Below, in pieces: positions 258 through 14,727 of a DNA stretch of 15,727 nucleotides. This stretch comes from a virus. The first letter of the stretch is position 1; each line of letters opens with the position of its first letter. The notes beneath the pieces were generated by a model. The model was given only the letters and a program-made list of their open reading frames with translations, had not been told where the DNA came from and did not search any database. Position numbers and translations under genes: made by a program. The DNA is taken from UHGV virus genome UHGV-0299427. One strand, 5' to 3'.

Positions 258-405
258 GATAGATTAGCGCAGGTACCTGTTGGTGGATTGCAGGAGGAAA
301 AATGAAGTCGAGTGGAAAAATCCCAGAAAAATTTTTGTTTAACAGAGGTCCTGGCTCACTATGCGAAATACGGAGGAGCTGCAGAAGAATTCTGCTTCAT
401 CCTTA
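258..405 (+). pseudogene. Degenerate, internally deleted copy of the hok-like locus (leader motif plus 33-codon ORF MKSSGKIPEKFLFNRGPGSLCEIRRSCRRILLHP, no transmembrane segment)
   Basis: By-eye alignment to the minus-strand hok locus: motif GATAGATTAGCGCA vs GATAGATTACGCGC (13/14), following leader 21/32 and 24/30 matches, and tcactatgcgaaatacggaggagct vs tcgctgtgtgaaatacggatgagct (21/25). About 150 bp spanning the hok SD, start and hydrophobic N-terminus are missing. Strong SD AGGAGG before ATG 302. Confidence 0.35.
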
Positions 406-495
406 GAGTTTAAACAGCACGTGCACTACCATTGTTTCTGCATATCGCCACACCATCGCCACTCAACCGCCATTGCACAAAATACAAATACGAAA

Positions 496-515
496 AAACC
501 ACCCGAAGGTGGTTT
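496..515 (-). terminator. Hairpin (AAACCACC cgaa GGTGGTTT) followed on the minus strand by a T-rich run; candidate rho-independent terminator for a leftward transcript
   Basis: Perfect 8-bp stem with 4-nt loop. The minus-strand downstream sequence is TTTTTCGTATTTG; on the plus strand it is not T-rich. Confidence 0.4.
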
Positions 516-536
516 CACGACACTGCTTATTGCTTT

Positions 537-662
537 TTGCACGACATATTATCGTTATGACACCTTCTTGTTAAAGGTATTGTACTCCTCATCTCGATTT
601 TATGATGTGGGCTATGATTGGTTAGTAATAGAGTGTATCGGTATGCGATGTGGTTTATTAAT
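537..662. repeat. Right arm of the perfect inverted repeat; contains the putative ATG (643) and first 20 nt of the downstream secreted-protein gene
   Basis: Exact reverse complement of 1-126. ATGCGATGTGGTTTATTAAT at 643-662 lies inside the arm. Confidence 0.9.
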
Positions 663-924
663 GGCAATCTGCCTTTGTTTAGTATCTTTTAGCGGATATG
701 CAGCAACAGGAAAGTCTGATGCTCAGATCAAAAAAGAAATAATTAAAGAATCCATTGAATCTTATCCAGGCAATTGTGCGTGTCCTTATAATCATGCAAG
801 GAATGGTAGTAGATGTGGTGGACGCAGTGCATATAGCCGTAATGGAGGGTATGACGTGGTATGTTATGAGGGTGATGTTACCGATGAAATGATCCGGCAA
901 TGGAAGCAGGAGAATGCTGAGTAA
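643..924 (+). CDS. Small secreted Cys-containing protein of unknown function (93 aa; signal peptide MRCGLLMAICLCLVSFSGYA, mature part with CxC and two further Cys)
   Basis: C-terminal third of track ORF 361..924. Positive n-region, hydrophobic core and a GYA-A cleavage-like site begin at Met-643; the upstream 94 codons run through the repeat-flanked segment and look non-coding. SD is weak. Followed by a terminator at 992-1034. Confidence 0.45.
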   Translation: MRCGLLMAICLCLVSFSGYAATGKSDAQIKKEIIKESIESYPGNCACPYNHARNGSRCGGRSAYSRNGGYDVVCYEGDVTDEMIRQWKQENAE

Positions 925-991: not shown

Positions 992-1034
992 CAAAAAGAA
1001 AACCCGCAGTTCTTACGCTGCGGGTTTGTTGTTC
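992..1034. terminator. Bidirectional rho-independent terminator (stem CCCGCAG / CTGCGGG, A-run 5' and T-run 3')
   Basis: AAAAAGAAAA-CCCGCAG-ttcttacg-CTGCGGG-TTTGTTGTT. It sits between the convergent secreted-protein gene (+) and hok-like gene (-). Confidence 0.55.
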
Positions 1035-1113
1035 ATGTCTGTGAGATAGGGTGCCTTATCGACCTTACCCTGGCAACCGATTGACGGGGGATAGCTCCCC
1101 CGTCGCGGTTTCC

Positions 1114-1254
1114 TTACTGCTTACACTGTAAGAACGCCGCAAACTCCGCTCCCCAGAAGCTCATCCGTATTTCACACAGCGAACCGTGCAGCATCCAGAT
1201 GATGAGGATTGCCGTCACGCAGAACGTGATGGCCATAAGCGATTTTTGCGACAT
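1114..1254 (-). CDS. Hok/Gef-family type I toxin (46 aa: MSQKSLMAITFCVTAILIIWMLHGSLCEIRMSFWGAEFAAFLQCKQ)
   Basis: Manual minus-strand translation; the ORF is below the track's size cutoff. N-terminal transmembrane helix followed by the SLCEIR-x6-E-x-AAF pattern recalled for Hok family members (nearest to HokA-like). SD AAGGAG lies 8 nt upstream. A GC hairpin (1083-1104) follows the stop, then the terminator at 992-1034. Confidence 0.6.
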   Translation of the reverse strand: MSQKSLMAITFCVTAILIIWMLHGSLCEIRMSFWGAEFAAFLQCKQ

Positions 1255-1490
1255 AGCGCTTGCTCCTTTTTCAGGGAGGCGCTAACCTATCACTTGCTAA
1301 GGTTAGATGGTCAGGGCCTCGGTTAAACAGAAATGTTTTCCGGGGCCTTTCCACATCTGGCCTTCGGGTATTCCCTCCGACCATCAGCCGAAAGGCACCC
1401 GCGCGTAATCTATCGCTTTTTTGTTACTCCGGCAATTCTGCCTGTTAATTCTGAGATAAAGGCAAACTCATCTGATTGTTTCCCCTGTGT
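1255..1490 (-). promoter_or_regulatory. Leader region of the hok-like mRNA (presumed mok/sok-type regulatory region), with motif GATAG(A/G)TTA(C/G)GCGC twice and a short leader ORF
   Basis: Motif at 1278-1291 and 1401-1414 (minus-strand sense). Layout GATAG...CGC...AAGGAG...ATG resembles the recalled R1 hok leader. Homology to the left-hand copy extends to about 1480-1490. No antisense RNA was mapped. Confidence 0.35.
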
Positions 1491-1705
1491 GAAGCTGGCA
1501 GCTCATGCCACGGGATACCTTCTGAAGAGTGAACGCCGGAGGCGTGTTTTGATGTGAATTTATGGAAAGCTTCCAGTGTTGAGAAGCATACGCCGCATTC
1601 CAGATTGTTACACTGGTAATACTTTTGCCGCACGGTGTTTGAATCATTTTCCGGACGACTGGTGCGGATACGGGCAGATGCGCCACAAAGCGGACAACGG
1701 AACAT
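1445..1705 (-). CDS. ogr: Ogr/Delta-family zinc-finger late transcription activator (86 aa as read; likely core about 72 aa plus a C-terminal extension)
   Basis: MFRCPLCGASARIRTSR...YQCNNLEC matches the P2 Ogr CPLC...C-x4-C zinc-finger pattern. SD AGGGAGG upstream. Sits immediately downstream of D, as in P2. Confidence 0.85.
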   Translation of the reverse strand: MFRCPLCGASARIRTSRPENDSNTVRQKYYQCNNLECGVCFSTLEAFHKFTSKHASGVHSSEGIPWHELPASHRGNNQMSLPLSQN

Positions 1706-1745
1706 AGCGACCTCCCTTAACGTGGTGCTGCCTATTCTAAGTTGC

Positions 1746-2855
1746 TCACTCTGTTTCCGCTATCCATTCCGGGATTTTTGCCTCAAGCTCAAGCTGCGTG
1801 GTAAAACCGCTGTTATCAATGGTGTGCTCGGCTTTTGCAATGATCCAGTCCTTATTATCAATCTCGCTTTTAAATCCTGTTACCGTGCCATGCATTTCGG
1901 GGTAGAGTTCTGCACGTCCACGCGCCAGCGTGATGGAGAATGATGCGGCTCCGCGTTGTAGTTGCTGCCACTTTGCCGCCGCTGCGCGTCTTGCTGCCTG
2001 CTCGTTCTGATAAGTCTTGCGTAACACAAACACATTGCCTTCCGCGCCTTCCATATAATCACCTTCACGGCTGCTGCTTTTCTCCTTTTTGGGTTTTGGC
2101 GGTTTACGGCGTTTCACGCTGACTTTTTTCTTTTTCCCGTAATTAAGATCAAGCCAGTAGGCGCGTACCCCCGTATACGCCTCGCGGTCAGCAATGCGGA
2201 ACTGATGGCGATCGCCGCTGCTGCGTGTAATGGCGAACGAGGGCAACGGCTGGCCCTGTGCGTTCACGCCACCACCTGGCATGATGAATAACAGATTGCC
2301 GCTTTTTACCGTGGTGATTGCGCCCAGCATTTCCGCCATGCGCGTAAGGAAGGACATGTCGCTTTCTTCGGTCTGGTCGGCGTGGTCGATTTCGATATCC
2401 ATCAGCATTTCGCTGATTTGCGGTTTCAGACCATACCGATGAGCGATGGCGGATACCACACGCTCAACGGTCACATCATGCCAGGACACCTCACGTTTAA
2501 CGTTAAATTCATCCCGAAAATCTGCGCTTCTGGCTGAAACAGTCAGCCTGTCCGGCGGTCCTTCGTGAGCGATTTCATCAACAATGTAAGTGCCTTTTTC
2601 TGTCAGCGGTTCTCCTTTCCAGCCAATGAGAACCGTCAGGCGCGCGCCCCGTGGCGGTAGCTGCAACTGACCATCCGCATCATCCAGCGTGATGGTGAGC
2701 TGGTCCGCGTCAAATCCCCGGTTGTCGGTCAGTGACAGGCTCATCAGGCGCTCTGCCACGCCTGACAGCGTTTTACCCTCCGCGAGAATATCAAAATCCG
2801 GCATTTTTACGGGGTCTGTGCCCTGACTGAGCAATTGCATGGTGGTGTCGGTCAT
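1746..2855 (-). CDS. D: Late control / tail protein D (gpD-like), 369 aa
   Basis: Track ORF 1746..2987 trimmed to ATG 2855, which is preceded by SD GGGAGGGAG. Length and position next to ogr fit P2 gpD. Contains a Lys-rich linker. Confidence 0.85.
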   Translation of the reverse strand: MTDTTMQLLSQGTDPVKMPDFDILAEGKTLSGVAERLMSLSLTDNRGFDADQLTITLDDADGQLQLPPRGARLTVLIGWKGEPLTEKGTYIVDEIAHEGPPDRLTVSARSADFRDEFNVKREVSWHDVTVERVVSAIAHRYGLKPQISEMLMDIEIDHADQTEESDMSFLTRMAEMLGAITTVKSGNLLFIMPGGGVNAQGQPLPSFAITRSSGDRHQFRIADREAYTGVRAYWLDLNYGKKKKVSVKRRKPPKPKKEKSSSREGDYMEGAEGNVFVLRKTYQNEQAARRAAAAKWQQLQRGAASFSITLARGRAELYPEMHGTVTGFKSEIDNKDWIIAKAEHTIDNSGFTTQLELEAKIPEWIAETE

Positions 2856-3012
2856 CTGCTCCCTCCCTGTGCGGCATGGTCGCATGTGCGTGCGGAGGGG
2901 GTTACTGCTTTTTGTTGTCGCCGTGGCGGGAGAACGGCGCAGGGGTGAGATTACGCGCGTGGTGGGTGATGATTGTTGCCGAATCATTTAACGGATACAA
3001 GGGGCTGAAGCT
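2856..3012. promoter_or_regulatory. Divergent intergenic region between D (-) and FI (+); expected site of the FI late promoter and any promoter for D
   Basis: 157 bp between divergent start codons. Only imperfect Ogr-type dyads were seen by eye (for example TGT-N12-AGA at 2916-2933); no perfect TGT-N12-ACA. Confidence 0.3.
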
Positions 3013-4197
3013 ATGAGTGAAACTCGTTTTCATGGTGCCCGTGTTACGGAAAGTACCGACCTGGTAACAGCGATTAACGATGTTGATTCCAGCGTTATCG
3101 GTATCGTGGCAACGGCGGATGATGCGGACGCGAAGCTGTTCCCGCTGAACAAGCCCACACTGCTGACCCGCGTCAATGACGTGCTGGGAAAATGCGGGAC
3201 AACGGGGACGCTTTATCGTGCGCTTAAGGCCATCGCAGACCAGGTGAGCACAAAGGTGATCGTCGTTCGCGTGGCTGAACACAAAGAAGAAAACGGAAAG
3301 ACGCAGGATCAACTGGTTATCGGTGGTTCTGAATCTGACGGCAGCTATACGGGGATGTATGCGCTGCTTGTTGCAGAGCAGGATGAAAGCATCGGATACC
3401 GTCCGCGTATTCTGGCCGCGCCGGAGCTGGACACGGAGGCGGTGACAAAATCCCTGTGCGTGATTGCGGGTAAACTGCGCGCGTTTGTGTATGCCTCATG
3501 TCATGGCTGTAACACGATGGCAGAGGCAATTACCTACCGCCAGAAATTCAACGAACGTGAGGTGATGCTCTTATGGCCGGACTTCATCGCCTACAACCCG
3601 AAAAGTGGCAAAAACGAAACGTTCCCCGCGCCTGCTTATGCGTGCGGCCTTCGTGCGTACATTGACCATGAGCAGGGCTGGCACAAATCACTGTCCAACG
3701 TTCCGGTTAAAAATGTGCTGGGGATGTCCCGGCATGTGTTCTGGTCGTTGCAGGCCGAAGACAGCGATGCCAACAGCCTTAACAACAAAGAAATCACGAC
3801 CATTATTCGTCGTAACGGGTTCCGCTTCTGGGGCAACCGCACACCGGAAACGAACGCCTACATCTTTGAGGTGTATACCCGAACCGCACAGGTGCTGGCT
3901 GATTCAATTGCGGAAGCGCAGTTTGAAACCATCGACAGTCCACTGACGCCTGCGAACGTGAAGGATGTTATCAGTGCCATCAGGGCAAAACTGGATTCAC
4001 TGGTTACTGCCGGGAAACTGATTGGCGCGGAGTGCTGGTATGACGTGGTGGATAACAGCACCACGGGTTTACGTCAGGGACGTGTGCGTATTCGCTACAA
4101 ATATACGCCAGTTCCCCCGCTGGAAGACATGGAGCTTTACCAGTCGTTTACTGATGAATTCTTTGGTCCCGCATTTGCGGTGCTGGGAGGTGCCTGA
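3013..4197 (+). CDS. FI: Contractile tail sheath protein (gpFI-like), 394 aa
   Basis: Length and motifs (…ADDADAKLFPLNKP…, …FRFWGNRT…) match P2 FI. SD AAGGGG. The stop overlaps the FII start (TGATG). Confidence 0.9.
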   Translation: MSETRFHGARVTESTDLVTAINDVDSSVIGIVATADDADAKLFPLNKPTLLTRVNDVLGKCGTTGTLYRALKAIADQVSTKVIVVRVAEHKEENGKTQDQLVIGGSESDGSYTGMYALLVAEQDESIGYRPRILAAPELDTEAVTKSLCVIAGKLRAFVYASCHGCNTMAEAITYRQKFNEREVMLLWPDFIAYNPKSGKNETFPAPAYACGLRAYIDHEQGWHKSLSNVPVKNVLGMSRHVFWSLQAEDSDANSLNNKEITTIIRRNGFRFWGNRTPETNAYIFEVYTRTAQVLADSIAEAQFETIDSPLTPANVKDVISAIRAKLDSLVTAGKLIGAECWYDVVDNSTTGLRQGRVRIRYKYTPVPPLEDMELYQSFTDEFFGPAFAVLGGA

Positions 4198-4709
4198 TGG
4201 CTGTACCAAAACATCTTCGCTTTTTTACGCTGTTTGTGGATGGTGAAAACGAAGTGGGTAAGGTGACGTCCGTCACTCTGCCTAAACTGACGCGCAAAAC
4301 CGACAGCTACCGGGGTGGTGGCATGATGGGTGCGGTAAGTATTGATCTCGGTCTGGACGACTCCGCGCTTGATGCGAGCTTTGTCATGGGGGGCGCAGTT
4401 CGTGAGCTGTTCCTTAAGTATGGCGGCACGATTGACGGCACGCTGCTGCGTTTTGCGGGTGAATACTACACCGATGCAGAAAGCGACCTGTATGAAGTCG
4501 AAATGCGCGGACGTGTGACGGAAATTGATATGGGGGAAGCCAAACAGGGCGAAGCCACATCACACACTTACGCCATTAAAAACACCTACTACAAGCTGAG
4601 TGTTAACGATCGCCCGTTGTGGGAGATTGACCTGCTGAACTTCATTTACCGGAAGGACGGCAAGGACATTGTGCCTGACCGTATCCGTTCCGCGCTTGGG
4701 CTTGGCTGA
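4197..4709 (+). CDS. FII: Tail tube protein (gpFII-like), 170 aa
   Basis: Follows the sheath gene with start/stop overlap; size and sequence are typical of P2 FII. Confidence 0.9.
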   Translation: MAVPKHLRFFTLFVDGENEVGKVTSVTLPKLTRKTDSYRGGGMMGAVSIDLGLDDSALDASFVMGGAVRELFLKYGGTIDGTLLRFAGEYYTDAESDLYEVEMRGRVTEIDMGEAKQGEATSHTYAIKNTYYKLSVNDRPLWEIDLLNFIYRKDGKDIVPDRIRSALGLG

Positions 4710-4763
4710 TAAGTAATATGCAGGCGGCGCAGTGCGTCGCCTCTGACTGAAAGGAGTTTCCTG

Positions 4764-5129
4764 ATGAAAGAGACGAAAAACATCGATACCGAAAACACGG
4801 TAGTTACTGACACTGTGAAAGAAACCAGTGAGCGTGGCGTAAAACTTACCCAACCAATTGAGCGAGGCGGCGAAAAAATCACGTATGTGGAGATCACCGG
4901 AGCTATTGAGCAGGCTGGATCTCTGCGAGATTTGTCGTTGTCTGATGTGCTGAATCTGAAAGCGGAATCCATGTTTACGCTGCTGTCACGCGTGACATCA
5001 CCGCGACTGGATGAAGTGACGATCAAAAAAATGGCATCCCGTGACTTTATTCAGTTATGTGTGGTTGCCGTAAATTTTTTGAGCGGTGCGGACTCTGGCG
5101 GGAAGAACGAACAGGCGACGGAAGCCTGA
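4764..5129 (+). CDS. E: Tail assembly chaperone gpE (frame-0 product)
   Basis: Sits between the tube and tape-measure genes. SD AGGAG 8 nt upstream. Contains the slippery heptamer near its 3' end. Confidence 0.8.
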   Translation: MKETKNIDTENTVVTDTVKETSERGVKLTQPIERGGEKITYVEITGAIEQAGSLRDLSLSDVLNLKAESMFTLLSRVTSPRLDEVTIKKMASRDFIQLCVVAVNFLSGADSGGKNEQATEA

Positions 5130-5293
5130 TCACGGTTGTGTGCTTTGAGCACATAGAAGACTTTGTGGCAGATATTGCCGTTATTTTTAACTGGTCGCCC
5201 GCTGAAATCTTCATGATGACGCCCGGCGAAGTGGTTAGCTGGCGTGAGCGGGCGGCACTTCGCAGCGGGAATGCAGACAATGAAGACTCTTGA
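5075..5293 (+). CDS. E': E' extension: -1 frame continuation giving the E+E' fusion by programmed frameshift at T TTT TTG (5075-5081)
   Basis: Track ORF 5057..5293 is in the -1 frame relative to E. Slippery site TTTTTTG is identical to the P2 E/E' site. Its stop overlaps the T start. Confidence 0.7.
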   Translation, partial: FFERCGLWREERTGDGSLITVVCFEHIEDFVADIAVIFNWSPAEIFMMTPGEVVSWRERAALRSGNADNEDS

Positions 5294-8192
5294 TATCCGG
5301 GTCGCTTTCAGCGCCGTTGACAGGCTGACCCGGCCTGCCGAAAACGCCCGCCGCCTGATGGGGCAGTTTGGTGACTCCATCCAGCGAACGCAGGGGGCGA
5401 TCAAAAATCTCGAGCGTCAGGCGCGTTCATTTGAGCGCGCCCGTGACGCTGTCAGTAAAGCGGATGCTGGCATCGTGAAAGCACGACGCCAGCTTAACGC
5501 CCTTAATCAGTTACAACGCACGGGTACAGTGCTCAGCGAAAAACAACAAAAGCTGATGCAGCAGTTAAGCACCCGGCTTGAACGCCTGAATGAATCGCGC
5601 ACACGGGAAATTCAGAAAATGCGGGAGCTTGGCGGAGAGCTGAAACGCCACGGCATTTCCCTGACAGGCAGCGATAACACCATCCAGCAGGCCATCAGAC
5701 GCACCGAACAGTACAACAATCAGCTTGAACGCGAACGGCAGGCGCTTGCGCGTGTAACGCGTGCGCGTGAGCGGTATTCGCGCGCGCAGGAAACAGCAGG
5801 AAAACTGAAAACAGGTGGTGCGCTGGCAATTGGTGCGGCAGCGGCTGGCGGCTATGCTGCCGGGCGTTTTTTGCAGCCTGCGATCGGGTTCGGGAAAGAG
5901 ATGTCCCGCGTTCAGGCACTGACGCGAATCGACAAAAACAGCCTGCAGTTTAAGGCGCTGCGTGAGCAGGCGTTAAAACTTGGCTCTGAAACGCAGTTCA
6001 CCGCAGGCGATGCCGCCAGTGGGCAGGCATTTCTTGCAATGGCAGGCTTCACTCCGCAGGCCATTCAGGCTGCGCTTCCCGGCGTACTGAGCATGGCAAC
6101 GGCTGGCGGTATGGATCTCGGCGAGACGGCAGATATTGGCTCAAATATCCTGACGCAGTTCGGCCTTTCTGCTGACCAGATGGACCGGGTCGGAGACACA
6201 CTCACCGCAGCGTTTACCCGTACCAACACTGACCTTCGCGCACTGGGCGAAACCATGAAATATGCCGGTCCGGTGGCGGGTAAGCTGGGGATATCGCTGG
6301 AGCAGGCCGCAGCGATGGCGGGCGTGCTGGCGAATATGGGCATCAGAGGGAGTGATGCCGGGACGGCAATGCGTGCCAGCCTGGCTCGTCTGGCATCACC
6401 GCCAAAGGCGGCGGCAGAAGCTCTGAAAGAGCTGGGCGTGTCCGTCTCGGATGCCGGGGGCAAAATGCGCCCGATGGAAGATCTGCTGGCTGACCTTTAT
6501 AAAGCTACCCGCAAATACGGGGAAGTTGACCGGGTATCCTTCTTTAAGGACATCGCCGGGGAAGAGGCTTTCACATCGTTTATGGCACTCGTTGATGCGG
6601 CGGGTGACGGTTCCTTACCCAAACTGAGAAAAGAACTTGAGGGCGCACGCGGTGAGGCTGAACGCACGGCAAAGGTTATGGCCAACAACCTTGATGGCGA
6701 TCTGAAATCACTCGGCAGTGCATGGGAAGGGTTGCGCATCCGCATTGCAGATCTGATTGACGGTCCGCTGCGTTCTGTCACGCAGTGGCTCACGCGGGTG
6801 GTCTCAAAGGTGACGGCGCTGGCGCAGGCCCATCCGGTACTGACGCGCCAGTTACTGATAGCGGGAGGCGCACTGCTGGCGACAACAGCAACGGTTGGTT
6901 CGTTGTCTCTGGTTATTGGGGTGCTTCACGGGAAGCTGGCTACGTTACGTCTCGGTTTTTCTCTCCTGACAGGATCAATGAATGTCGTCAGGGTGCTGCC
7001 AGCACTATGGGGAATGGTAACAGGTTCCATCTCGTTGCTGGGTGGCGCTATCGGGGCGCTGTTCAGTCCGGTCGGATTGATTGTTGCCGCGTTTGTGGCT
7101 GCGGCAGTTCTCATCTGGAAATACTGGGAACCCATCAAGGCGTTTTATATCGGGGTGTTCAACGGGATTATGGAACGACTGGCTCCGTTGCGCGAAACCT
7201 TTGAACGGTTCGGTCCTGTTTTTGATGTCGTGCGCGATGGGATTATTCAGGTCTTTAACTGGTTTAAATCGCTGCTGTCACCGATGGAGTCCAGCAAGGA
7301 AACGCTGGATAAATGTACCAGTGCTGGCGAGATATTCGGTAACGTTCTTGGCGGTGCGTTACAGCTTGTTCTGACACCTGCAAAAATGCTACTGGATACG
7401 CTGGCGTGGATACTTGAAAAACTTGGCGTCCTTCCGGATGAAGCGGAAAGGGCGCGCAAGAAAATTGAAGACGCACAGCGTGCGGCCATTCTTCAGGACA
7501 AGGTTGCTCTGTTTCAGGGAGACATTGCGAAAATCAATCCGCCGAAGTCTGCGGAAAATGGCAATGGCACCGGAGGCGATAAACCCAAAGACAACAAACC
7601 GCTCACAGACAGCAATACCGGTACGCTACGCAGACTCAGCAAAATTGCTGATAACACAGGTAAGCTGGTTGATGAGACGAAAAAACGCATTGGCCCCGGT
7701 GATATTGTCTTTAAGAACCTGCCCCGCGCACTTGCCGTTCGTGGGGAGTGGCAGGAGCGGAAGATTGCGCAGGTCAGTAAGCCTGCCTCCGCAATTAATA
7801 TCACACCCGTGGTCCCTGCTCCGCTGCCTCTGGCGCTGGTCCCTGGTGGGGAGTGGCAGGAGCGGAAGATTGCGCAGGTCAGTAAGCCTGCCCCCGCAAT
7901 TAATACCACACCCGTGGTCCCGGCTCCGCTGCCTCCGGCGCTGGTCCCTGTTGTTGCGGCCAGCTCCCGCCCGGTGGCGGAGGCCATACGATCGCCAGTG
8001 GCATCAGTTCCTGTAACTTCCCGTAACCGGGAGCCTGTTGCCTCCGGATTTGGTGGTGAAATTCATGTTCATCTGCATAACGTTGTTACGCAGAATCCCC
8101 GCGAACTGGCGAAACTGGTCGGTGAAATGGTCAGGGCAGAAATGGAACGGCGCGCCCGTGCCGGGCGTGGCAGTTTTTACGATAAAGATTGA
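5280..8192 (+). CDS. T: Tail tape measure protein (gpT-like), about 970 aa; start codon uncertain (GTG 5244, ATG 5271 or ATG 5280)
   Basis: Long Ala/Gly/Leu-rich protein with coiled-coil-like N-terminus and hydrophobic segments, between E/E' and U. Contains a 105-bp in-frame tandem duplication. Confidence 0.9.
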   Translation: MKTLDIRVAFSAVDRLTRPAENARRLMGQFGDSIQRTQGAIKNLERQARSFERARDAVSKADAGIVKARRQLNALNQLQRTGTVLSEKQQKLMQQLSTRLERLNESRTREIQKMRELGGELKRHGISLTGSDNTIQQAIRRTEQYNNQLERERQALARVTRARERYSRAQETAGKLKTGGALAIGAAAAGGYAAGRFLQPAIGFGKEMSRVQALTRIDKNSLQFKALREQALKLGSETQFTAGDAASGQAFLAMAGFTPQAIQAALPGVLSMATAGGMDLGETADIGSNILTQFGLSADQMDRVGDTLTAAFTRTNTDLRALGETMKYAGPVAGKLGISLEQAAAMAGVLANMGIRGSDAGTAMRASLARLASPPKAAAEALKELGVSVSDAGGKMRPMEDLLADLYKATRKYGEVDRVSFFKDIAGEEAFTSFMALVDAAGDGSLPKLRKELEGARGEAERTAKVMANNLDGDLKSLGSAWEGLRIRIADLIDGPLRSVTQWLTRVVSKVTALAQAHPVLTRQLLIAGGALLATTATVGSLSLVIGVLHGKLATLRLGFSLLTGSMNVVRVLPALWGMVTGSISLLGGAIGALFSPVGLIVAAFVAAAVLIWKYWEPIKAFYIGVFNGIMERLAPLRETFERFGPVFDVVRDGIIQVFNWFKSLLSPMESSKETLDKCTSAGEIFGNVLGGALQLVLTPAKMLLDTLAWILEKLGVLPDEAERARKKIEDAQRAAILQDKVALFQGDIAKINPPKSAENGNGTGGDKPKDNKPLTDSNTGTLRRLSKIADNTGKLVDETKKRIGPGDIVFKNLPRALAVRGEWQERKIAQVSKPASAINITPVVPAPLPLALVPGGEWQERKIAQVSKPAPAINTTPVVPAPLPPALVPVVAASSRPVAEAIRSPVASVPVTSRNREPVASGFGGEIHVHLHNVVTQNPRELAKLVGEMVRAEMERRARAGRGSFYDKD
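7741..7950 (+). repeat. Two tandem copies of a 105-bp (35-codon) unit within the tape measure gene
   Basis: 7741-7845 and 7846-7950 differ at about 4 positions. Protein repeat is VRGEWQERKIAQVSKPA(S/P)AIN(I/T)TPVVPAPLP(L/P)ALVP. Confidence 0.85.
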
Positions 8193-8204
8193 GGAGTCAT
8201 GGCC

Positions 8205-8693
8205 ATGATGATGATCTACGGCATGTTTGTTTTTGAGCTGCGCACGTTGCCGCATCAGCAGTTACAGCAAAGCAAAAGCTGGCGGCATGTGAAAAATGAA
8301 CGCGTTAACCGTTCAGCAAGCTGGCAGTATATCGGTGCAGGTGATGATCGCATCGTGCTTTCAGGCGTGCTTTATCCTGAAATTACAGGTGGCGAAGTGT
8401 CGCTTTCGTTGCTGACCACGCAGGCATATACAGGACGCCCCTGGCCTCTGATTGATGGTGTCGGGCAGATTTACGGCATGTATGTCCTGACCGAAACGAA
8501 TACGACCCGTTCCGAGTTTGATCGCTACGGTAAGGCGAAAAAGATAGAATTTTCACTGACCCTTGAACGCTGTGATGAGGATTTGCGGGAGCGCCTGCAA
8601 TCCTCATCGTTCAGTGATATGCTGTCCGGCTTCAAAGATAAGGTCACATCATCCCTTAACAGCGCGGCCAGCTCCGTTAAAGGGCTGTTTTGA
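8205..8693 (+). CDS. U: Tail protein gpU-like (about 162 aa); start at ATG 8205 preferred over 8199
   Basis: Follows T with SD GAGGAG; size and position fit P2 U. ATG 8199 is only 2 nt from the SD, 8205 is 8 nt. Confidence 0.85.
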   Translation: MMMIYGMFVFELRTLPHQQLQQSKSWRHVKNERVNRSASWQYIGAGDDRIVLSGVLYPEITGGEVSLSLLTTQAYTGRPWPLIDGVGQIYGMYVLTETNTTRSEFDRYGKAKKIEFSLTLERCDEDLRERLQSSSFSDMLSGFKDKVTSSLNSAASSVKGLF

Positions 8694-8700
8694 TTAACGC

Positions 8701-8730
8701 AAAACCGCTAATGGTCAGATTAGCGGTTTT
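8701..8730. terminator. Perfect 12-bp-stem hairpin (AAAACCGCTAAT ggtcag ATTAGCGGTTTT) between convergent U and invertase genes; bidirectional terminator candidate
   Basis: Seen directly. T-run follows on the plus strand. The invertase stop codon (8720-8722) lies inside the stem. Confidence 0.6.
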
Positions 8731-9319
8731 CATTTTCCTGAGTCTGCCTGGTTGTTGCTTCAGCCTGTATATCGCCTACAGGGTGATAACGATAAATCGT
8801 CGATATGCCGATGTCGTAAATGATCGCCAGTTGTTTCCTGTCATGACCGTTTTTAATCAGCCTTGCTATTTGCTCGTGTTGTTCTTTTGTCAACTTCGGG
8901 CGACGTCCGCCAATGCGTCCTTGTGCGCGTGCTGCTGCCAGCCCGGCCAGTGTACGTTCTACAATTAATTCACGTTCCATTTCGGCTAAAGCCCCCATGA
9001 CGTGAAAAAAGAAACGCCCCATGGGTGTTGACGTGTCAATGCTGTCCGTCAGACTACGGAAATTAACACCTTTTTCCCGCAATTCCTCAATAAGCGTGAT
9101 CAGGTGTTTCATACTTCTGCCCAGTCTGTCCAGCTTCCAGACAACCAGCGTATCTCCTTCTGATAGCGTTCTGAGCAGTTTTTTCAATCCCGGTCTGGTT
9201 GATTTCGTTCCGCTGATTTTATCTTCAAAAATCAGTTCACATCCTGCGCAGTTCAGTGCATTGCGTTGTAAATCCGTGTTCTGGTCGTTTGTTGACACAC
9301 GAATATAGCCAATTTGCAT
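8720..9319 (-). CDS. Serine-recombinase DNA invertase (Hin/Gin/Cin/Pin, Din family), 199 aa
   Basis: MQIGYIRVSTNDQNTDLQ… with catalytic Ser motif and C-terminal HTH (…AIIYDIGISTIYRY…). Track ORF trimmed to ATG 9319 with SD AAGAGGA. Adjacent to the invertible tail fibre segment. Confidence 0.9.
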   Translation of the reverse strand: MQIGYIRVSTNDQNTDLQRNALNCAGCELIFEDKISGTKSTRPGLKKLLRTLSEGDTLVVWKLDRLGRSMKHLITLIEELREKGVNFRSLTDSIDTSTPMGRFFFHVMGALAEMERELIVERTLAGLAAARAQGRIGGRRPKLTKEQHEQIARLIKNGHDRKQLAIIYDIGISTIYRYHPVGDIQAEATTRQTQENENR

Positions 9320-9373
9320 AAAAAACATCCTCTTTGTTTCGTGAAAAATACAGAGTTGGTATAGGTAGGGATA

Positions 9374-9399
9374 AAAACGAAAACGTTGGTTTGGGAGAA
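9374..9399. other. Left crossover site of the invertible segment (reverse complement TTCTCCCAAACC AA CGTTTTCGTTTT)
   Basis: Shares the 15-nt core TTGGTTTGGGAGAAG (9386-9400) in inverted orientation with 11209-11223. Resembles recalled gix/cix/hix half-site architecture (AAACC-NN-GGTTT). Confidence 0.6.
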
Positions 9400-9738
9400 G
9401 CGGCAAAAAGGAATGTGGGGACAGGGACGAATCAGATACCTGATATGGGTAGCTTCACGCTTTCTGTTTCAGGTACTGGATATCAAAAATTACCATCTGG
9501 TTTTATTCTTCAGTGGGGCTCAATCGGCGCACCAAGCATTGCACAGGATGTGGTAACCCATTTTCCGATTGCATTTCCAAACAGATGTCTGCGTGTTTTG
9601 GTCTCACAAGACTACACACCAGATAGCGGGGCTGTTGGTTATATTGCCTGTGCAGGTTTTAGTTCCGACCCGGTTAAATTTATATCCAGAGCCAGTACTC
9701 CTGGCCTCGGCGCTTCATTTTTAGCGTTAGGCTGTTAA
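9386..9738 (+). CDS. Alternative tail fibre C-terminal segment (Hv'), silent in this orientation; no start codon of its own
   Basis: Reading frame is continuous with the shared core (…VGLGEAAK…), which matches the …LGLGEGS… junction in H. Would fuse to the H constant region after inversion. Track ORF 9334..9738 begins at an incidental ATG. Confidence 0.6.
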
Positions 9739-9760
9739 TTTAGCTATATGGAGTGAAAAA

Positions 9761-10201
9761 ATGAATTACATATATTCCGCGACGACAAACTCTTTCTATC
9801 CCTTGGAGATGAAAGAGGATTACACACAAGCTGACTCATGGCCAGATGATGCTGTTGAAGTTGATGAGCAAGTGTATATTGAGTTTTCCGGATTACCGCC
9901 GAAAGGAAAAATCCGTATCGCTGGAGAAAATGGTTTTCCTGCATGGTCTGAAATTCCACCACCAACACATGAGGAACAGATTGCTGCAGCCGAACAGGAA
10001 AAGCAGCAACTGATTAATCAGGCCAACGATTATATGAACAGTAAACAATGGCCTGGTAAAGCGGCTATTGGTCGTCTGAAAGGTGAGGAACTGGCGCAAT
10101 ATAATTTGTGGCTGGATTATCTGGACGCACTGGAACTGGTCGATACTTCCGGTGCGCCAGATATTGAATGGCCTACGCCTCCGGCAGTTCAGGCCAGATG
10201 A
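9761..10201 (+). CDS. Tail fibre assembly protein (tfa', alternative copy), 146 aa
   Basis: C-terminal …DTSGAPDIEWP… motif homologous to the minus-strand tfa C-terminus. SD GGAGTG. Convergent 29-nt overlap with tfa. Confidence 0.8.
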   Translation: MNYIYSATTNSFYPLEMKEDYTQADSWPDDAVEVDEQVYIEFSGLPPKGKIRIAGENGFPAWSEIPPPTHEEQIAAAEQEKQQLINQANDYMNSKQWPGKAAIGRLKGEELAQYNLWLDYLDALELVDTSGAPDIEWPTPPAVQAR

Positions 10202-10766
10202 CATCCGGCGCGGTGCTGGTATCTGTTGTCGTCACCGCGTCAATGTAATCAAGCACGGCGTTAAGCCGGGTGGTTTCTGCCTGCGTCAGCTTCCGCCCGG
10301 CCTGTAATTTCAGCTGAATCAGACTGATGGAAGCCATTGCAGCATCAATCAGTGACTGGCGCTGTGCTTCTGCCGCTTCTACTGCGGCACCGTGTTGTGC
10401 CTCAGTATCTGTCACCCATTTCTCACCATCCCATTTATCATATGGCGTTAACGGTGAAAGCGTGACATAACCGTTTTTGATGGCACCGATATAATCCACT
10501 GTAACAGCAGCACCATTTTCGATTGAGTAAACAGTCTCATTGCGATGGTCTTCTTCATGGCTCCATCCCTTACCTGTAAATACTGCCACTCTTCCCGGAA
10601 TGTTTTCGCCAGGGTCAATACCAGTGGAACAGGCGGGCATACTTACGCCAGTATTAATATATTCATCAGACCAGCCCGTATACTCAGATGTTTCAGCATC
10701 ATAATAAAAACAACGCATATCGCCCGGCACTGTAGCCAGCCCATTTTCATCAAAAACAGGTTTCAT
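10173..10766 (-). CDS. Tail fibre assembly protein (tfa, expressed copy; gpG-equivalent), 197 aa
   Basis: Start overlaps the H stop (TAATG). C-terminal …DTSTAPDVIWP… motif. Confidence 0.85.
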   Translation of the reverse strand: MKPVFDENGLATVPGDMRCFYYDAETSEYTGWSDEYINTGVSMPACSTGIDPGENIPGRVAVFTGKGWSHEEDHRNETVYSIENGAAVTVDYIGAIKNGYVTLSPLTPYDKWDGEKWVTDTEAQHGAAVEAAEAQRQSLIDAAMASISLIQLKLQAGRKLTQAETTRLNAVLDYIDAVTTTDTSTAPDVIWPELPEA

Positions 10767-12301
10767 TATTTAGCCCTCACCAGAAAGTTAAATGCAATAT
10801 TTCGCGGTCTGACAGCAACAAAATTCACACCATCACCCAAAGAGTTACTGGTGAAATTAAATCGTGAAAATCCTGGCTGATTTCCGGCGATGCCATCATG
10901 AAAATTAATTGCGTGTCCCGCACCTCCGCCTATATTCCCGGCAAACTGAGAAAAGTTTGTAGCTGCCTGCCAGCTTAATAATTTGCGACCACCGTCTGCA
11001 CCTCGCCCGTCATCCCAGATACGAATGAAATCACCGCGGGCTTCAGGTAATACCAGCGAAGGAAACACTTTTGCCAGCACAGGGTAATCAGAGGCAGAAA
11101 ATTTCGCCCCGTTGAACTTCAAAAACACCATACTGGACCAGCTTTTGATTACGGTATCTGGCATTGCGGCGGACGGCCAGAAGAACGGAACGCCAATAGC
11201 TGGAGAACCTTCTCCCAAACCAAGGTAATTGAGGACATCTTTTATACTGCCCTTAGCGATAATAGCGCGACCAATAGCTGTAAGGGTTGCCAGCGCTGCG
11301 CGGTCTGCTCCGGTAAAATAAGGCAACCGATCTGCTGCAGTGACAAGTCCTGCCAGAGCAGTGAGCGTGGCATCTGCCGGTTGTTTTCCGTTTGCCAGAT
11401 CGTATGCAGCCTTGACCGCTTTCGGTGTGGCGGCCAGTATTTCAGACGTGCTGTTGATGGCACTGCTCAATTGTACGGTGCCTTTTGCCGTCAGCGAGGC
11501 AGCAGGCACTCCCGTTATCTGACTCCACGGGTGAGTGTGGCTGACGGGTGCCTTGCCAGCTGCAAGGTCGTATGCAGCCTTGACGGCTTTTGGTGTGGCG
11601 GCCAGCGTTTCAGAGGTGCTGTTGGTGGCACTGCTCAGTTGTACGATCCCTTTACGGGTCGTTGTTGCATCCTGGGCTGTGTATTTTCCCCGGGCCAGAT
11701 CATACGCGATTTTCACAGCCTTCGGCGTGGCAGCCTCAGTTTCTGATTGACTGTCCGTGGCGCTGCTAAGTTGAACAAAGCCTTTTGCGGTCAGCGAGGC
11801 GTCCGGGTGACGTCGTGACTGCTCGTGCTTTGAGATTTTATCATCCACATATTTGCGGGTTGCCAGAACCACAGACGGGTCGATTTTCAGCGTGATGGCT
11901 TTGGTGTTCGTGACAACCAGAATCATGCGGATAGTCTGGGTGCGTCCACTGCCTTCCTGCAACTGCGGTTTGTACGTTTCCGGGCAGTTTGCCACCGCAA
12001 TGAGTACACCTTTATCATCATAAAGACCAATCTCACGGATCCAGAATCCTCCCTCGTCTTCAGGGATGATTTGCTCCGCAATAATCTGGCTCTGATTGTT
12101 AGGGTCAACACTCAGAAGATTCAGCGGTGCAATGCGTTTCTGGTTAATCAGTTTTGTTTGTGCAGGGTTTGGTGTTGGTAACACACCATTTGCATCACCA
12201 ACGGCCATTTGCGTCAGATTCAGCTTACTGCCGAGCATCGTCGCGTTAGCCAGTCGTGCCGCGCCCTGATTAGTCAGAATGGCGTAGTATTTCATTGTCA
12301 T
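10766..12301 (-). CDS. H: Tail fibre protein (gpH-like), 511 aa; constant N-terminal part about residues 1-364 and a variable C-terminal part inside the invertible segment
   Basis: N-terminus …MAVGDANGV… is P2 H-like. Three internal about 35-aa fibre repeats. Crossover core lies at codons about 360-364. Confidence 0.9.
   Translation of the reverse strand: MTMKYYAILTNQGAARLANATMLGSKLNLTQMAVGDANGVLPTPNPAQTKLINQKRIAPLNLLSVDPNNQSQIIAEQIIPEDEGGFWIREIGLYDDKGVLIAVANCPETYKPQLQEGSGRTQTIRMILVVTNTKAITLKIDPSVVLATRKYVDDKISKHEQSRRHPDASLTAKGFVQLSSATDSQSETEAATPKAVKIAYDLARGKYTAQDATTTRKGIVQLSSATNSTSETLAATPKAVKAAYDLAAGKAPVSHTHPWSQITGVPAASLTAKGTVQLSSAINSTSEILAATPKAVKAAYDLANGKQPADATLTALAGLVTAADRLPYFTGADRAALATLTAIGRAIIAKGSIKDVLNYLGLGEGSPAIGVPFFWPSAAMPDTVIKSWSSMVFLKFNGAKFSASDYPVLAKVFPSLVLPEARGDFIRIWDDGRGADGGRKLLSWQAATNFSQFAGNIGGGAGHAINFHDGIAGNQPGFSRFNFTSNSLGDGVNFVAVRPRNIAFNFLVRAK
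11210..11235. other. Right crossover site of the invertible segment (TTCTCCCAAACC AA GGTAATTGAGGA), inside gene H
   Basis: Core 11209-11223 is the exact reverse complement of 9386-9400. Confidence 0.6.
11384..11806. repeat. Three imperfect intragenic repeats in H (phage tail fibre repeat, (A/R)KG(F/I/T)VQLSSA…ATPKAVK(A/I)AYDLA)
   Basis: Protein repeats start at residues 172, 216 and 272 (spacing 132 and 168 bp). They also generate the spurious plus-strand ORFs at 11381-11750. Confidence 0.7.
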
Positions 12302-12906
12302 GCGTTTACTCTCAGATTATCAATTAAATGAATGGCCGGGGCAGGGAAATAATCCCCTTCGACAATAATGGACTCCGGGGTGTAGGGGTAAACCGTCAGG
12401 GCATCGCCGTGATAGCATCCCGTACCAACGAAAATCTTTCCGTTCACACTCAGACTGATCGCCAGCCCTGTCAGATGGCGACTTACTGGTTTTGCATCCG
12501 CAATAAGGCGTTCAAGTTCCTGATGCATTTCATCGGTGATGCCCTGATCAAGTACTCCGACAACAATGCGAAATGTCCCAGGCTCCTCATTGAGTTGCCA
12601 CCACTCCTTTACTTCAATCAGGTAGCCGAGAGGCTCCACGGCTCTTCGCAGTGCGCTGATGGTCCCTTTGTGTCGGTGTATCAGCCATGCATCACGAATC
12701 ACCTGTCGCTTTGTCTCTTCCGGCCAGTTGCGATCCCAGCGGTCAACGGAAAACGCCCAGGCGAGATAAGGCAGCAGATGCACCGGGCAGGTGTCCGGCG
12801 ACCACAACGTGTTGAGGTCTACCGGAATGTCTGTAATGCGTGTTCCGACGGCTTCGGCACAACGCATGAAATTGCTGGCTGATGGGGGTAACAACGAATT
12901 ACTCAT
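12298..12906 (-). CDS. I: Baseplate assembly protein I (gpI-like), about 202 aa
   Basis: Track ORF trimmed to ATG 12906, which overlaps the J stop. Its stop overlaps the H start (ATGA). Confidence 0.85.
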   Translation of the reverse strand: MSNSLLPPSASNFMRCAEAVGTRITDIPVDLNTLWSPDTCPVHLLPYLAWAFSVDRWDRNWPEETKRQVIRDAWLIHRHKGTISALRRAVEPLGYLIEVKEWWQLNEEPGTFRIVVGVLDQGITDEMHQELERLIADAKPVSRHLTGLAISLSVNGKIFVGTGCYHGDALTVYPYTPESIIVEGDYFPAPAIHLIDNLRVNA

Positions 12907-13795
12907 TGCGTCCACCTTCGCTGATGGTGAATGACTCACAGCGCGCCGCCTGTATGTCGCTGATGGCCATATTCTGTGTGGGTTCGATTATCTCCACGCG
13001 TTGCACACCGTGCACATGCAGTGCGGCAGCAATGGCGGACAACGCCACGTCCTGACCGATAAGCCCCTGCTCAGCCAGCCACTTCCTGAACGACGATTCA
13101 GCCGCGGCCAGAATAGGTTCGGATTCCGGGCCGGGGTAAAAGTACAGTTTTGCATTCAGCCGCCATGTCACGATTCTGGCGCTCTGTACGGTCAGGCGGT
13201 CGGCCACCGGGCGGGTATCCTCTGCATTCAGAGTGGCGCGAACGGTATTAAGCAACGCCTCCGTTGCTGTGCCGTCGCCTTCAGTGGACAGAATGGAAAC
13301 CGTCACGTTGGCCGGAGACGGGCTGATGGCTCGCGCGTCGCGTACCAGACCGCTGGCGCTGCGTGCAAAATACTCGTATGCGCCTGACGGGCCAGCAACA
13401 CTCAGACCGTCATACGCCCGTTGCGCCCGCAGTCTCAGCGATGTGTCGCTTTCCATCACCGCGTCGGTGGTATCCGTTGCCGGAGTGATAACCAGGCGCT
13501 TTGTGTTCATATTGCCCGCGAGGTTGTCCAGGTCTGTCCCGGCGCTGTGGCTTAACATGCAGGCGCGTGCACCCTCATTGACCCGCTGGCGTAACAGCAT
13601 TTCACGAAACGCTGTTGTCTGGGCGATAACGTTCAGGGGTTCTGATTCCAGCTCCAGCGCGGCGGAGACGGCTTCACGCTGTTCGGCAGGATAGGACGCA
13701 ATCATCATGGCCTTTGTGTCAGCCAGAATTGCCTCAAAATCAGGCTTCGCGATGATGGCGGGTTCCGGTAACTGGGAAAGGTCAACAGCAGGCAT
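12899..13795 (-). CDS. J: Baseplate assembly protein J (gpJ-like), 298 aa
   Basis: Size and position between W and I; typical translational coupling. Confidence 0.9.
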   Translation of the reverse strand: MPAVDLSQLPEPAIIAKPDFEAILADTKAMMIASYPAEQREAVSAALELESEPLNVIAQTTAFREMLLRQRVNEGARACMLSHSAGTDLDNLAGNMNTKRLVITPATDTTDAVMESDTSLRLRAQRAYDGLSVAGPSGAYEYFARSASGLVRDARAISPSPANVTVSILSTEGDGTATEALLNTVRATLNAEDTRPVADRLTVQSARIVTWRLNAKLYFYPGPESEPILAAAESSFRKWLAEQGLIGQDVALSAIAAALHVHGVQRVEIIEPTQNMAISDIQAARCESFTISEGGRNE

Positions 13796-13798
13796 GAT

Positions 13799-14149
13799 TT
13801 ACTCCCTCAGCGTGATGGTTAACTCAACATTCTGCATGGTCTGCATGACAGTGCCCGACAGCGTCACCCCGGCGCGGCCTCCTGCCTTCCAGACAACGTC
13901 GATGGCGTCCAGGGCAATGCGGGGTTCCCATCGTGTCAGCGCAATCACGGCAGCACTCATGCATTGCAGACGCGTGGTGTTATTCATGGGTTCGTCAATC
14001 AAATCAGGTACAAGGCTGCCATATTCCCGTCGCATAACCCGGCTGGCCAGCGGGGTGGTCAGGATGTCCCTGGCTGACTGTTTCAGGTGCTCCATATCAT
14101 TCAGGTTTCCCGTCCCGTCCGGATTCATTCCTGTGTAGCGGGTTGTCAC
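13799..14149 (-). CDS. W: Baseplate wedge protein W (gpW / gp25-like), 116 aa
   Basis: Size and position; start overlaps the V stop. Confidence 0.85.
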   Translation of the reverse strand: MTTRYTGMNPDGTGNLNDMEHLKQSARDILTTPLASRVMRREYGSLVPDLIDEPMNNTTRLQCMSAAVIALTRWEPRIALDAIDVVWKAGGRAGVTLSGTVMQTMQNVELTITLRE

Positions 14150-14727
14150 TGCGGGCCTCCTGTCGAATCGCTGCCGCCTTTCACACCACCGTGTTTATGC
14201 GTATGCACTGTGATGCCGTTTGAGGTGAAATCGCCGCCGCTGTGCGTGATATTGCCGCTCATCTTTCCCCCTTTTGTGACGTCAAGCGTCGCTGTTCTCA
14301 GAAGGTTTGTGCATTCCACGACGGGCGTGTCCAGTGTCACGCTGACGGATGCCTGCAGGGTGGCTGTTTTCATGCCGCTGGCGCTCAGTGCGCCAGCGTC
14401 TGCGTCGTAGCGGAACACCGCGCCATCCGGCGCGCTGACCACGATTTCTTTCAGGCTTTTGCCGGGGGCCGGACTGGCATCACTCCACAGGCTGCCAATT
14501 ATCATGGCGGTTTCCGGGTTGCCGCCAATGCAGGCAATTACCACCTGTTCGCCTGGTGATGGCGGCAGCCACACATTGAAGGCTCCCGCGCGCGTGGTGT
14601 TCCAGCGCAACCAGCCTGTTTCCAGTTCGCCGCTGCGAACGCGCACGCGCCAGGACTTCTCATCAACTTCAGAGATGATCCCGGTGCGGATGATGTTGCT
14701 CAGCAGTCGCATGAGTTCTGCGCTCAC
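14146..14727 (-). CDS. V: Baseplate spike / assembly protein V (gpV-like), 193 aa
   Basis: …IRTGII…EQV…GG…DGA…SG(M/I)KTA…TLDTP(V)VECTN…KGG(K/T)M(S/R)GNI(T/E)H(S/T)GG…SNGI(T)VHTHKH… matches recalled P2 V. Confidence 0.85.
   Translation of the reverse strand: MSAELMRLLSNIIRTGIISEVDEKSWRVRVRSGELETGWLRWNTTRAGAFNVWLPPSPGEQVVIACIGGNPETAMIIGSLWSDASPAPGKSLKEIVVSAPDGAVFRYDADAGALSASGMKTATLQASVSVTLDTPVVECTNLLRTATLDVTKGGKMSGNITHSGGDFTSNGITVHTHKHGGVKGGSDSTGGPQ

Follow-up and report, generated by a model that had tools for sequence, protein, structure and literature searches.

The tail genes of the prototype phages P2 and 186 all lie on one strand, and in the annotated records (NC_001895 and NC_001317, respectively) V-W-J-I-H-G, FI-FII-E-T-U-D and ogr or B read in the same direction, with D as the last gene of the F operon, as an earlier note on this DNA had correctly stated. 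This synteny is typical of the prototype phages and is not an ICTV criterion for Peduoviridae. The late promoters of P2 and 186 are of the TGT-N12-ACA type, centred at about -55, and the P2 record assigns a single activator site to the divergent promoters pP and pO, with starts located 55.5 bp to either side. Outside the prototypes, P88 was described as a plaque-forming phage with a burst size of around 65 and a contractile tail 140 nm long, and its genome was sequenced on DNA extracted from purified particles (PMC5285337). SEN4/5 was described as a myovirus (PMC5261728). A literature search on the P88-like/SEN4-type lineage found no paper that remarked on the inversion considered here or that mapped late promoters.

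Like P2 and 186, the window (the whole 15,727-nucleotide stretch of virus genome UHGV-0299427 analysed here) carries the tail gene set FI, FII, E/E', T, U and D followed by an Ogr/B-type activator. All homologues of the P2-family (Peduoviridae) contractile tail module, including the Ogr/Delta activator, are thereby present, and the tail-module proteins have 32-49% identity to those of P2, while the comparison of whole systems put protein identity to P2 at only 42-60%. Gene identities and strands, assigned with PHROGs and with Pfam above the gathering score, were as the earlier note gave them. FI, FII, E/E', T and U (3013-8693) are on the plus strand, whereas R, S, V, W, J, I, H, G, an invertase gene, D and ogr are on the minus strand. 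In P2 and 186 a single operon, located downstream of V to G and read in the same direction throughout, runs from FI to D; in the window the FI-U block is opposite both to V-G and to D/ogr. The annotated records of both phages confirmed the inversion that the earlier note had proposed. The note was also right that D, reading leftward, is severed from the FI operon and needs a promoter of its own.

Within the inverted block, FI, the tail sheath gene (3013-4197), was assigned to phrog_23, has Pfam sheath domains and is 45% identical to P2 FI, and is followed by the tail tube gene FII (4197-4709; Pfam Phage_tube, 159.6 bits). The tail-assembly chaperone pair (phrog_103; Pfam Phage_P2_GpE) consists of E (4764-5129) and E' in the -1 frame (5138-5293), and the frameshift geometry is as expected, with the ORF 5057-5293 at a -1 offset relative to 4764. 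The tape measure gene T (phrog_28) occupies about 5244-8192. Its mechanical ORF begins at a GTG at 5244, but a true start near 5280 is probable, by analogy with annotated relatives, in which T and the end of E' share 14 bases. The final gene of the block is U (8199-8693; Pfam Phage_P2_GpU, 133 bits), beyond which lies a minus-strand gene for a serine DNA invertase of 199 amino acids (8720-9319; phrog_125; Pfam Resolvase and HTH_7). The baseplate, fibre and tail-completion genes H, I, J, W, V, S and R (10766-15675, minus strand), mapped with PHROGs and tblastn, are contiguous and in the same order as in P2. S and V overlap at 14724-14727, so that, unlike in P2 and 186, a separate pV would not fit.

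On the other side of the block, the tail/baseplate hub protein gene D (1746-2855, minus strand; phrog_52; Pfam Phage_GPD) encodes 369 amino acids with 49% identity to P2 gpD. The mechanical ORF of D extends to 2987 (413 amino acids), but the true start is the ATG at 2855, which has a Shine-Dalgarno sequence, GGGAGGGAG, just ahead of it and gives a length that agrees with RefSeq relatives (including L006). The divergent D-FI spacer is therefore the 157 bp at 2856-3012, as the earlier note had taken it. The ogr-like late activator (1445-1705, minus strand; 86 amino acids) has an Ogr/Delta zinc finger (Pfam PF04606 Ogr_Delta, 52.4 bits against a cut-off of 26.3) and 42% identity to P2 Ogr. As in P2, it lies 3' of D in the same direction, and D and ogr form their own leftward transcription unit. 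The ORF at 361-924 had no match in Pfam or PADLOC, and an Rfam scan of the window returned nothing at gathering thresholds.

The closest described phages share this arrangement. The window is collinear with P88, 500465-2, P884B11, Citrobacter phage Shae_phiSM and PhiR44_2, all of the genus Xuanwuvirus, at 94-96% nucleotide identity over 70-86% of its length; the ICTV genus level is roughly 70% genome-wide, and the present comparison spans the 15.7-kb window, with the remainder of the prophage outside it. Gene order and strands are the same in all five, and the Xuanwuvirus layout, S V W J I H G, inverted U-T-E-FII-FI, D and ogr, is that of the window, which was identical to P88 and Shae_phiSM when their maps were drawn from tblastn and from annotation. 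The P88 D-FI spacer has one mismatch to that of the window. The 14-30% of the window that was not covered is accounted for by the tail-fibre C-termini, the content of an invertible segment and the cargo beyond ogr/hok, all of which differ; the tape measure ORF is also longer in the window, at 2949 nt compared to 2808 nt in P88. In Salmonella phage SEN4/SEN5 (Senquatrovirus) and Serratia phage KSP20 the FI-U block is likewise inverted and divergent from D, with D 63-74% identical to that of the window and an activator-type dyad kept in the spacer. SEN5 belongs to another ICTV genus, has no invertase and has U converging straight on G, while KSP20 is placed only to the family Peduoviridae. The earlier note had implied an odd rearrangement, a possible misassembly and a threat to tails, and had named beforehand the conservation of the same D/FI divergence in functional relatives as what would refute this; P88 and SEN4/5 show exactly that divergence. 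The inverted layout is standard in an established and widespread lineage, with annotated genomes publicly available for years, and tail production is not impaired by it.

The same arrangement was seen in a wider survey. Wherever D was at least 61% identical to that of the window, the order was always U< T< E< FII< FI< D> ogr>; this group comprises 57 loci from GTDB species representatives in about 25 genera of Enterobacterales, as well as those of 80 IMG/VR loci that were long enough to include both FI and D. Wherever D was at most 53% identical, every locus had the P2 order. Neighbour-joining trees of D, FI, U and FII, which are rough and unrooted, are built from tblastn-derived fragments and cannot tell which arrangement is ancestral, each separated inverted from canonical arrangements by one split. 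This points to a single inversion that is old and fixed. The FI-U inversion is one ancient fixed rearrangement that marks a deep clade of Enterobacterales phages, and is neither recent, nor an invertase switch, nor an assembly error. P2/186 synteny is accordingly not universal in Peduoviridae, and when prophages are annotated the inversion is no ground for suspecting misassembly or a defect. D/FI divergence can instead serve as a clean synapomorphy that separates P88/SEN4-type from P2-type prophages.

That the 5.8-kb block was simply misoriented in the source genome has nothing specific in its favour beyond the prior expectation of a P2-like order, and we regard it as vanishingly improbable. 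Both junctions are repeated in independent complete genomes, D/FI being intact and unbroken in about a quarter of the complete E. coli genomes (1358 of 5426) and U/invertase in 621, and both are also present in the P88 genome from purified particles. The D/FI junction is 100% identical in strain TW10598, and at least 80% of the window was found at one place in 99 complete E. coli genomes. The alternative U-D adjacency, searched for with a synthetic junction query, was joined in none of the 1413 E. coli genomes that carry the genes, a result that also argues against a reversible or recent flip of the block by the adjacent serine invertase, acting as a Din/Gin-type enzyme on secondary sites. This flip, although the gene for the enzyme directly adjoins the right breakpoint, is given next to no credence either. 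Inversion of the Gin/Hin/Cin/Pin type takes place between two crossover sites of about 26 bp that bound the segment in inverted orientation, and FI-U lacks them: inverted-repeat and site-pattern searches found no gix/hix-type site at either block end (2856-3012 and 8694-8730), in agreement with the earlier note, which had seen no inverted repeats or Din-type sites at the breakpoints. The orientation is moreover uniform in all relatives examined, many of them without an invertase, and the spacer and the terminator look fitted to the present orientation. A foreign sheath-tube-tape measure cassette inserted in reverse, with no inversion in situ, is a somewhat less remote but still quite improbable origin. 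Phage genomes are mosaic, and E and T are further from P2 (32-33%) than their neighbours, but E and T are the fastest-evolving genes of tail modules in general, and their greater divergence fits this. The other genes of the block, FI (45%), FII (42%) and U (46%), are as close to P2 as the flanking V (47%), W (44%) and D (49%), and the tree of D in the flank gives the same single split as those of FI, FII and U in the block, as co-inheritance predicts. We infer that the original event was an inversion in situ.

The invertase itself serves a tail-fibre switch and has no part in the FI-U inversion. The only strong site-like inverted repeat in the window (I17, 94% complementary) joins 9378-9399 and 11210-11231, and the gix/hix-type pattern search gave two matches, where none were expected, both bounding the same tail-fibre segment (9378-11231). 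This invertible segment holds, by PHROGs, an alternative C-terminus of H (9334-9738) and G' (9761-10201) on the plus strand, and G (10173-10766) with the 3' part of H on the minus strand. Since these are the sole gix-type sites, and since the gene is missing in some relatives with an equal FI-U inversion (L006 and many survey loci), the inversion is independent of the invertase. Invertase-driven flipping of FI-U was rejected as a candidate.

The D-FI spacer, which is the left breakpoint of the inversion, is proposed to be a bidirectional late promoter region. A candidate Ogr-type activator site, TGTCGCCGTGGCGGGAGA, lies at 2916-2933 as a TGT-N12-AGA dyad centred on 2924.5, with AGA, not ACA, in one half. 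A strict TGT-N12-ACA regular expression had no match in the spacers of the window, of P88 or even of P2, whose own sites are imperfect (CCA or CAA), and a looser pattern, positioned with the help of an alignment, was used instead. With one mismatch allowed, a TGT-N12-A(C/G)A dyad is in the same place in 56 of 56 distinct clade spacers, a set that is phylogenetically related, so that this and the following counts overstate independent support. A longer version of the motif, TTGTTGT-N12-AGAAC, has just two occurrences in all of P88, one in the D-FI spacer and the other in the P-O spacer. In the window a hexamer stands at an offset of 53 from the dyad on both sides, as in an Ogr/Delta promoter. 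Towards FI, the -10-like hexamer GATGAT (2968-2973, plus strand), with a -35-like GTGAGA at 2945-2950, would place the predicted start at about 2980-2983, and an nA..AT hexamer is at this offset in 54 of the 56 spacers, other offsets giving no peak of similar height. Towards D, the mirror offset holds GACCAT (2876-2881, minus strand), with a predicted start at about 2866-2869. By the same anchoring rule, the four mapped P2 late starts have offsets of 65-68. The architecture resembles that of P2 pP/pO, a bidirectional promoter with one activator site.

It is less clear that D shares this site. D might instead be served by an independent promoter, whether Ogr-independent, with a second site, or low and constitutive, within the same fixed lineage trait, which we consider unlikely though less so than any of the origins weighed above. 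In the window GACCAT is a weak -10 and a convincing -35 is absent; the nA..AT hexamer is at the mirror offset in only 39 of the 56 spacers; and when 1000-9800 was scanned for the sigma-70 consensus, the spacer gave no hit. The empty scan is uninformative, because activator-dependent late promoters deviate from consensus and those of P2 fail such scans too, with GAAACT, TAGCCT, CAATCT and TGAAAA as the hexamers at the same offset. The D-side signal, moreover, peaks exactly at the mirror offset and nowhere else, every other offset being below 15%, and P2 itself drives two divergent promoters from one site.

Taken together, we consider it very likely that the window is a P88-like tail region in which FI-U and its late promoter were inverted in a lineage-wide, ancient and fixed manner, and in which the D-FI spacer is probably a bidirectional Ogr-dependent promoter. 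As the inversion would have brought the FI late promoter back-to-back with D, the tail genes are probably expressed from this 157-bp region, with the single dyad at 2916-2933 about 55 bp upstream of both the rightward and the leftward start. Ogr would bind there, judging from the motif, and both promoters would fire from it, the rightward transcript running from FI to U and stopping at a hairpin beyond U, and the leftward one covering D and continuing into ogr. Such a bidirectional Ogr-type promoter would be a small and testable addition to P2-family late regulation. With rather less confidence, and on a balance that tips only slightly in its favour, we suggest that capture of the FI Ogr site beside D created a second bidirectional late promoter, so that the entire late regulon of the clade would run from only a pair of divergent hubs, D<->FI and P<->O...G, in place of the four promoters of P2, with ogr fed back from the D side. 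If true, the two-hub late regulon would be a natural case of operon rewiring by promoter capture; our literature search found no paper describing it.

At the right breakpoint, a terminator scan found a 12-bp hairpin, AAAACCGCTAAT-N6-ATTAGCGGTTTT, at 8701-8730, with a U-tract on both strands and folding energies of -15.6 and -16.9 kcal/mol (z of -2.9 and -5.4) on the two strands. It is likely to be a bidirectional terminator between the convergent U and invertase genes. A crude hairpin-plus-T-run test applied 3' of U flagged 10 of 52 relative loci. As an unquantified impression, a GC-rich stem-loop after U is obvious in many more relatives than this test flagged.

Open reading frame listing and family searches place a complete P2-family tail region in the window. 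On the minus strand lie ogr (1445-1705, Ogr_Delta) and D (1746-2855, Phage_GPD), followed on the plus strand by the sheath gene FI (3013-4197), the tube gene FII (4197-4709), E (4764-5129), E' (5138-5293, in the -1 frame, Phage_P2_GpE), the tape measure gene T (about 5244-8192) and U (8199-8693), and again on the minus strand by a serine invertase gene (8720-9319) and by G, H, I, J, W, V, S and R, which reach from 10173 to the end of the window. In the annotated records of P2 and 186, V-W-J-I-H-G, FI-FII-E-T-U-D and ogr/B share one strand and D closes the F (or J) operon, which matches the order given in the earlier note. Set against these records, FI to U is indeed inverted, with FI diverging from D and U converging on the invertase gene.

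When the whole window was compared with phage records by megablast, collinear matches of 94-96% identity were found in Escherichia phages P88 and 500465-2, Xuanwuvirus P884B11, Citrobacter phage Shae_phiSM and PhiR44_2, and P88 and Shae_phiSM, as annotated, have exactly the strands of the window. At least 80% of the window was present at one place in 99 complete E. coli genomes. The D/FI junction was unbroken in 1358 of 5426 complete E. coli genomes (757-bp probe), and the U/invertase junction in 621 (701-bp probe). As a negative control, an artificial canonical junction was used in which the U 3' end was joined to the D 5' end, as P2 synteny predicts; the two halves were adjacent in none of the 1413 E. 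coli genomes containing both. From the collinearity, the control and the recurrence of both junctions in complete genomes, the misassembly that the earlier note allowed for, as well as a strain-specific rearrangement, can therefore be ruled out for practical purposes.

Phage P88 was obtained by induction from E. coli K88; under the electron microscope its head measures 50 nm and its contractile tail 140 nm (PMC5285337). Electron microscopy also shows Salmonella phage SEN4/5 to be a myovirus, and the phage is active against indicator strains (PMC5261728); in its map U, T, E, FII and FI share a strand and diverge from D, which lies on the opposite one. The same D/FI divergence is seen in a 6-kb fragment of Serratia phage KSP20. 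Relatives with the inverted layout are functional, which is the outcome that the earlier note had named as refuting its reading. The window, whose layout had been taken as something unusual, thus fits into a known lineage as an ordinary representative; the arrangement could already be read plainly from annotated genomes of named, functional phages that have been public for a long time. In a report on Citrobacter rodentium phages, phiSM virions were described as siphovirus-like with non-contractile tails (PMC6456863). The Shae_phiSM genome record, however, is placed in Xuanwuvirus and encodes a complete set of sheath, tube and baseplate proteins of the P2 type; the phiSM and phiNP micrographs or labels may have been swapped in that report.

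A D-protein alignment was used to search IMG/VR and a GTDB set with a single genome for each species, and loci were mapped by tblastn with 15 window proteins and 14 P2 proteins. Every locus with a D at least 61% identical to that of the window had the order U< T< E< FII< FI< D> ogr>, and every locus with a D of 53% identity or less and an FI closer to P2 had the P2 order. The inverted set comprised 57 species-representative loci, which come from about 25 genera, among them Salmonella, Klebsiella, Enterobacter, Citrobacter, Serratia, Erwinia, Pantoea, Pectobacterium, Brenneria, Yersinia, Hafnia, Morganella, Providencia, Xenorhabdus and Photorhabdus, plus those of 80 viral contigs long enough to hold both FI and D. 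In unrooted neighbour-joining trees of the flanking gene D and the block genes FI, FII and U, a single split parted 53-57 inverted from 16-17 canonical loci in all four. Divergence from P2 was about equal for block genes (identities of 45% for FI, 42% for FII and 46% for U) and flanking genes (V 47%, W 44%, D 49%). The simplest reading is a single old inversion that was passed on together with the other tail genes; as the trees are unrooted, either order may be the ancestral one. The inversion now characterises Xuanwuvirus and Senquatrovirus, at least two ICTV genera, along with many prophages that are unclassified. One prophage, on a 226-kb contig of an assembly labelled as a Firmicute ('Vagococcus sp. 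WN89Y', NZ_JBQPOM010000071.1), has D and FI 97-98% identical to those of the window; that assembly is probably contaminated or mislabelled.

As the earlier note pointed out, D has lost the FI promoter. The 157-bp D/FI spacer is nearly identical in P88, and in an alignment of 58 loci its core stands out as sharply conserved. This core is a TGT-N12-ACA-type dyad, as is characteristic of late promoters that depend on Ogr/Delta, and the candidate site in the window reads TGTCGCCGTGGCGGGAGA (2916-2933). When 56 distinct spacers were anchored on this dyad and the hexamer nA..AT was counted by offset, there was one peak per side, at offset 53 towards FI (54/56) and at the mirrored offset 53 towards D (39/56); all other offsets from 19 to 74 stayed below 15%, except FI-side offset 43 (9/56). 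The corresponding -10-like hexamers of the window are GATGAT (2968-2973, plus strand) and GACCAT (2876-2881, read on the minus strand). Under the same rule the four experimentally mapped late starts of P2 (NC_001895) fall at offsets 65-68, 7-10 nt past such a hexamer, and in the P2 record one activator site serves the divergent pP and pO, whose starts lie 55.5 bp away on each side. An extended TTGTTGT-N12-AGAAC occurs in the P88 genome in exactly two copies, in the P-O and D-FI spacers. From these sequence comparisons we propose that the D/FI spacer is a second late promoter working in both directions, with starts predicted close to 2980-2983 for FI and 2866-2869 for D and a D transcript that would continue into ogr, as in P2. 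The D-side elements are weak in the window, which would favour an independent promoter driving D, an explanation we consider unlikely. No papers commenting on the inversion or mapping late promoters in P88-like or SEN4-like phages were found in the literature; the putative bidirectional promoter is the one element that is mildly new. S and V overlap at 14724-14727 and R to G is contiguous (compare P88, 18978-19116), and thus there is no room in this lineage for a separate P2-like pV; its late genes may run from just two divergent promoter regions, P/O and D/FI. The mechanical D frame (1746-2987, minus strand) is 44 codons too long upstream and reaches into the spacer, where some RefSeq genomes annotate a 'hypothetical protein'; since it overlaps the conserved promoter-like elements, this extension is probably not a gene.

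The sole strong site-like inverted repeat in the window is the pair 9378-9399 / 11210-11231 (TTCTCCCAAACCAA(C/G)GT...), and, in agreement with the earlier note, nothing similar was found at either block end (2856-3012 or 8694-8730). These gix/hix-type sites bracket a classical invertible tail-fibre host-range switch (9334-11231), in which an alternative H C-terminal segment (9334-9738) and its chaperone G' (9761-10201) lie on the plus strand between the invertase gene and G, opposite the currently expressed H C-terminus and G (10173-10766, minus strand). The invertase was rejected as the cause of the FI-U inversion, given the block ends lacking sites and the many inverted relatives without an invertase, in which U converges directly on G (SEN5, a RefSeq-annotated relative and most surveyed loci). 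Because of these relatives, the invertase cassette is seen as an optional element inserted where U and G converge. At the U/invertase junction a 12-bp hairpin (8701-8730) with A/T runs on its flanks is common to both genes; folding is favourable on either strand (z -2.9 and -5.4), which fits an intrinsic terminator working in both directions.

Just beyond ogr, at the prophage end, lies a 46-aa Hok/Gef-family toxin gene (1114-1254, minus strand, Pfam HOK_GEF); P88 ('MokW-like host killing') and the RefSeq-annotated relative have a gene of this type at the same place, and Rfam gave no Sok-type antisense RNA in the window at gathering score. Further out, a 187-aa frame (361-924, plus strand) with a low GC content (about 40%, where the prophage has about 54%) had no Pfam or PADLOC match and matched phrog_27544 (unknown function) only over its C-terminal 80 residues; a palindromic terminator-like hairpin (1000-1027) lies past it. 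Relatives have other genes at this position, a BRCT-domain protein in the RefSeq-annotated one, and the frame probably represents a cargo gene, or moron, that sits at the boundary of the prophage.
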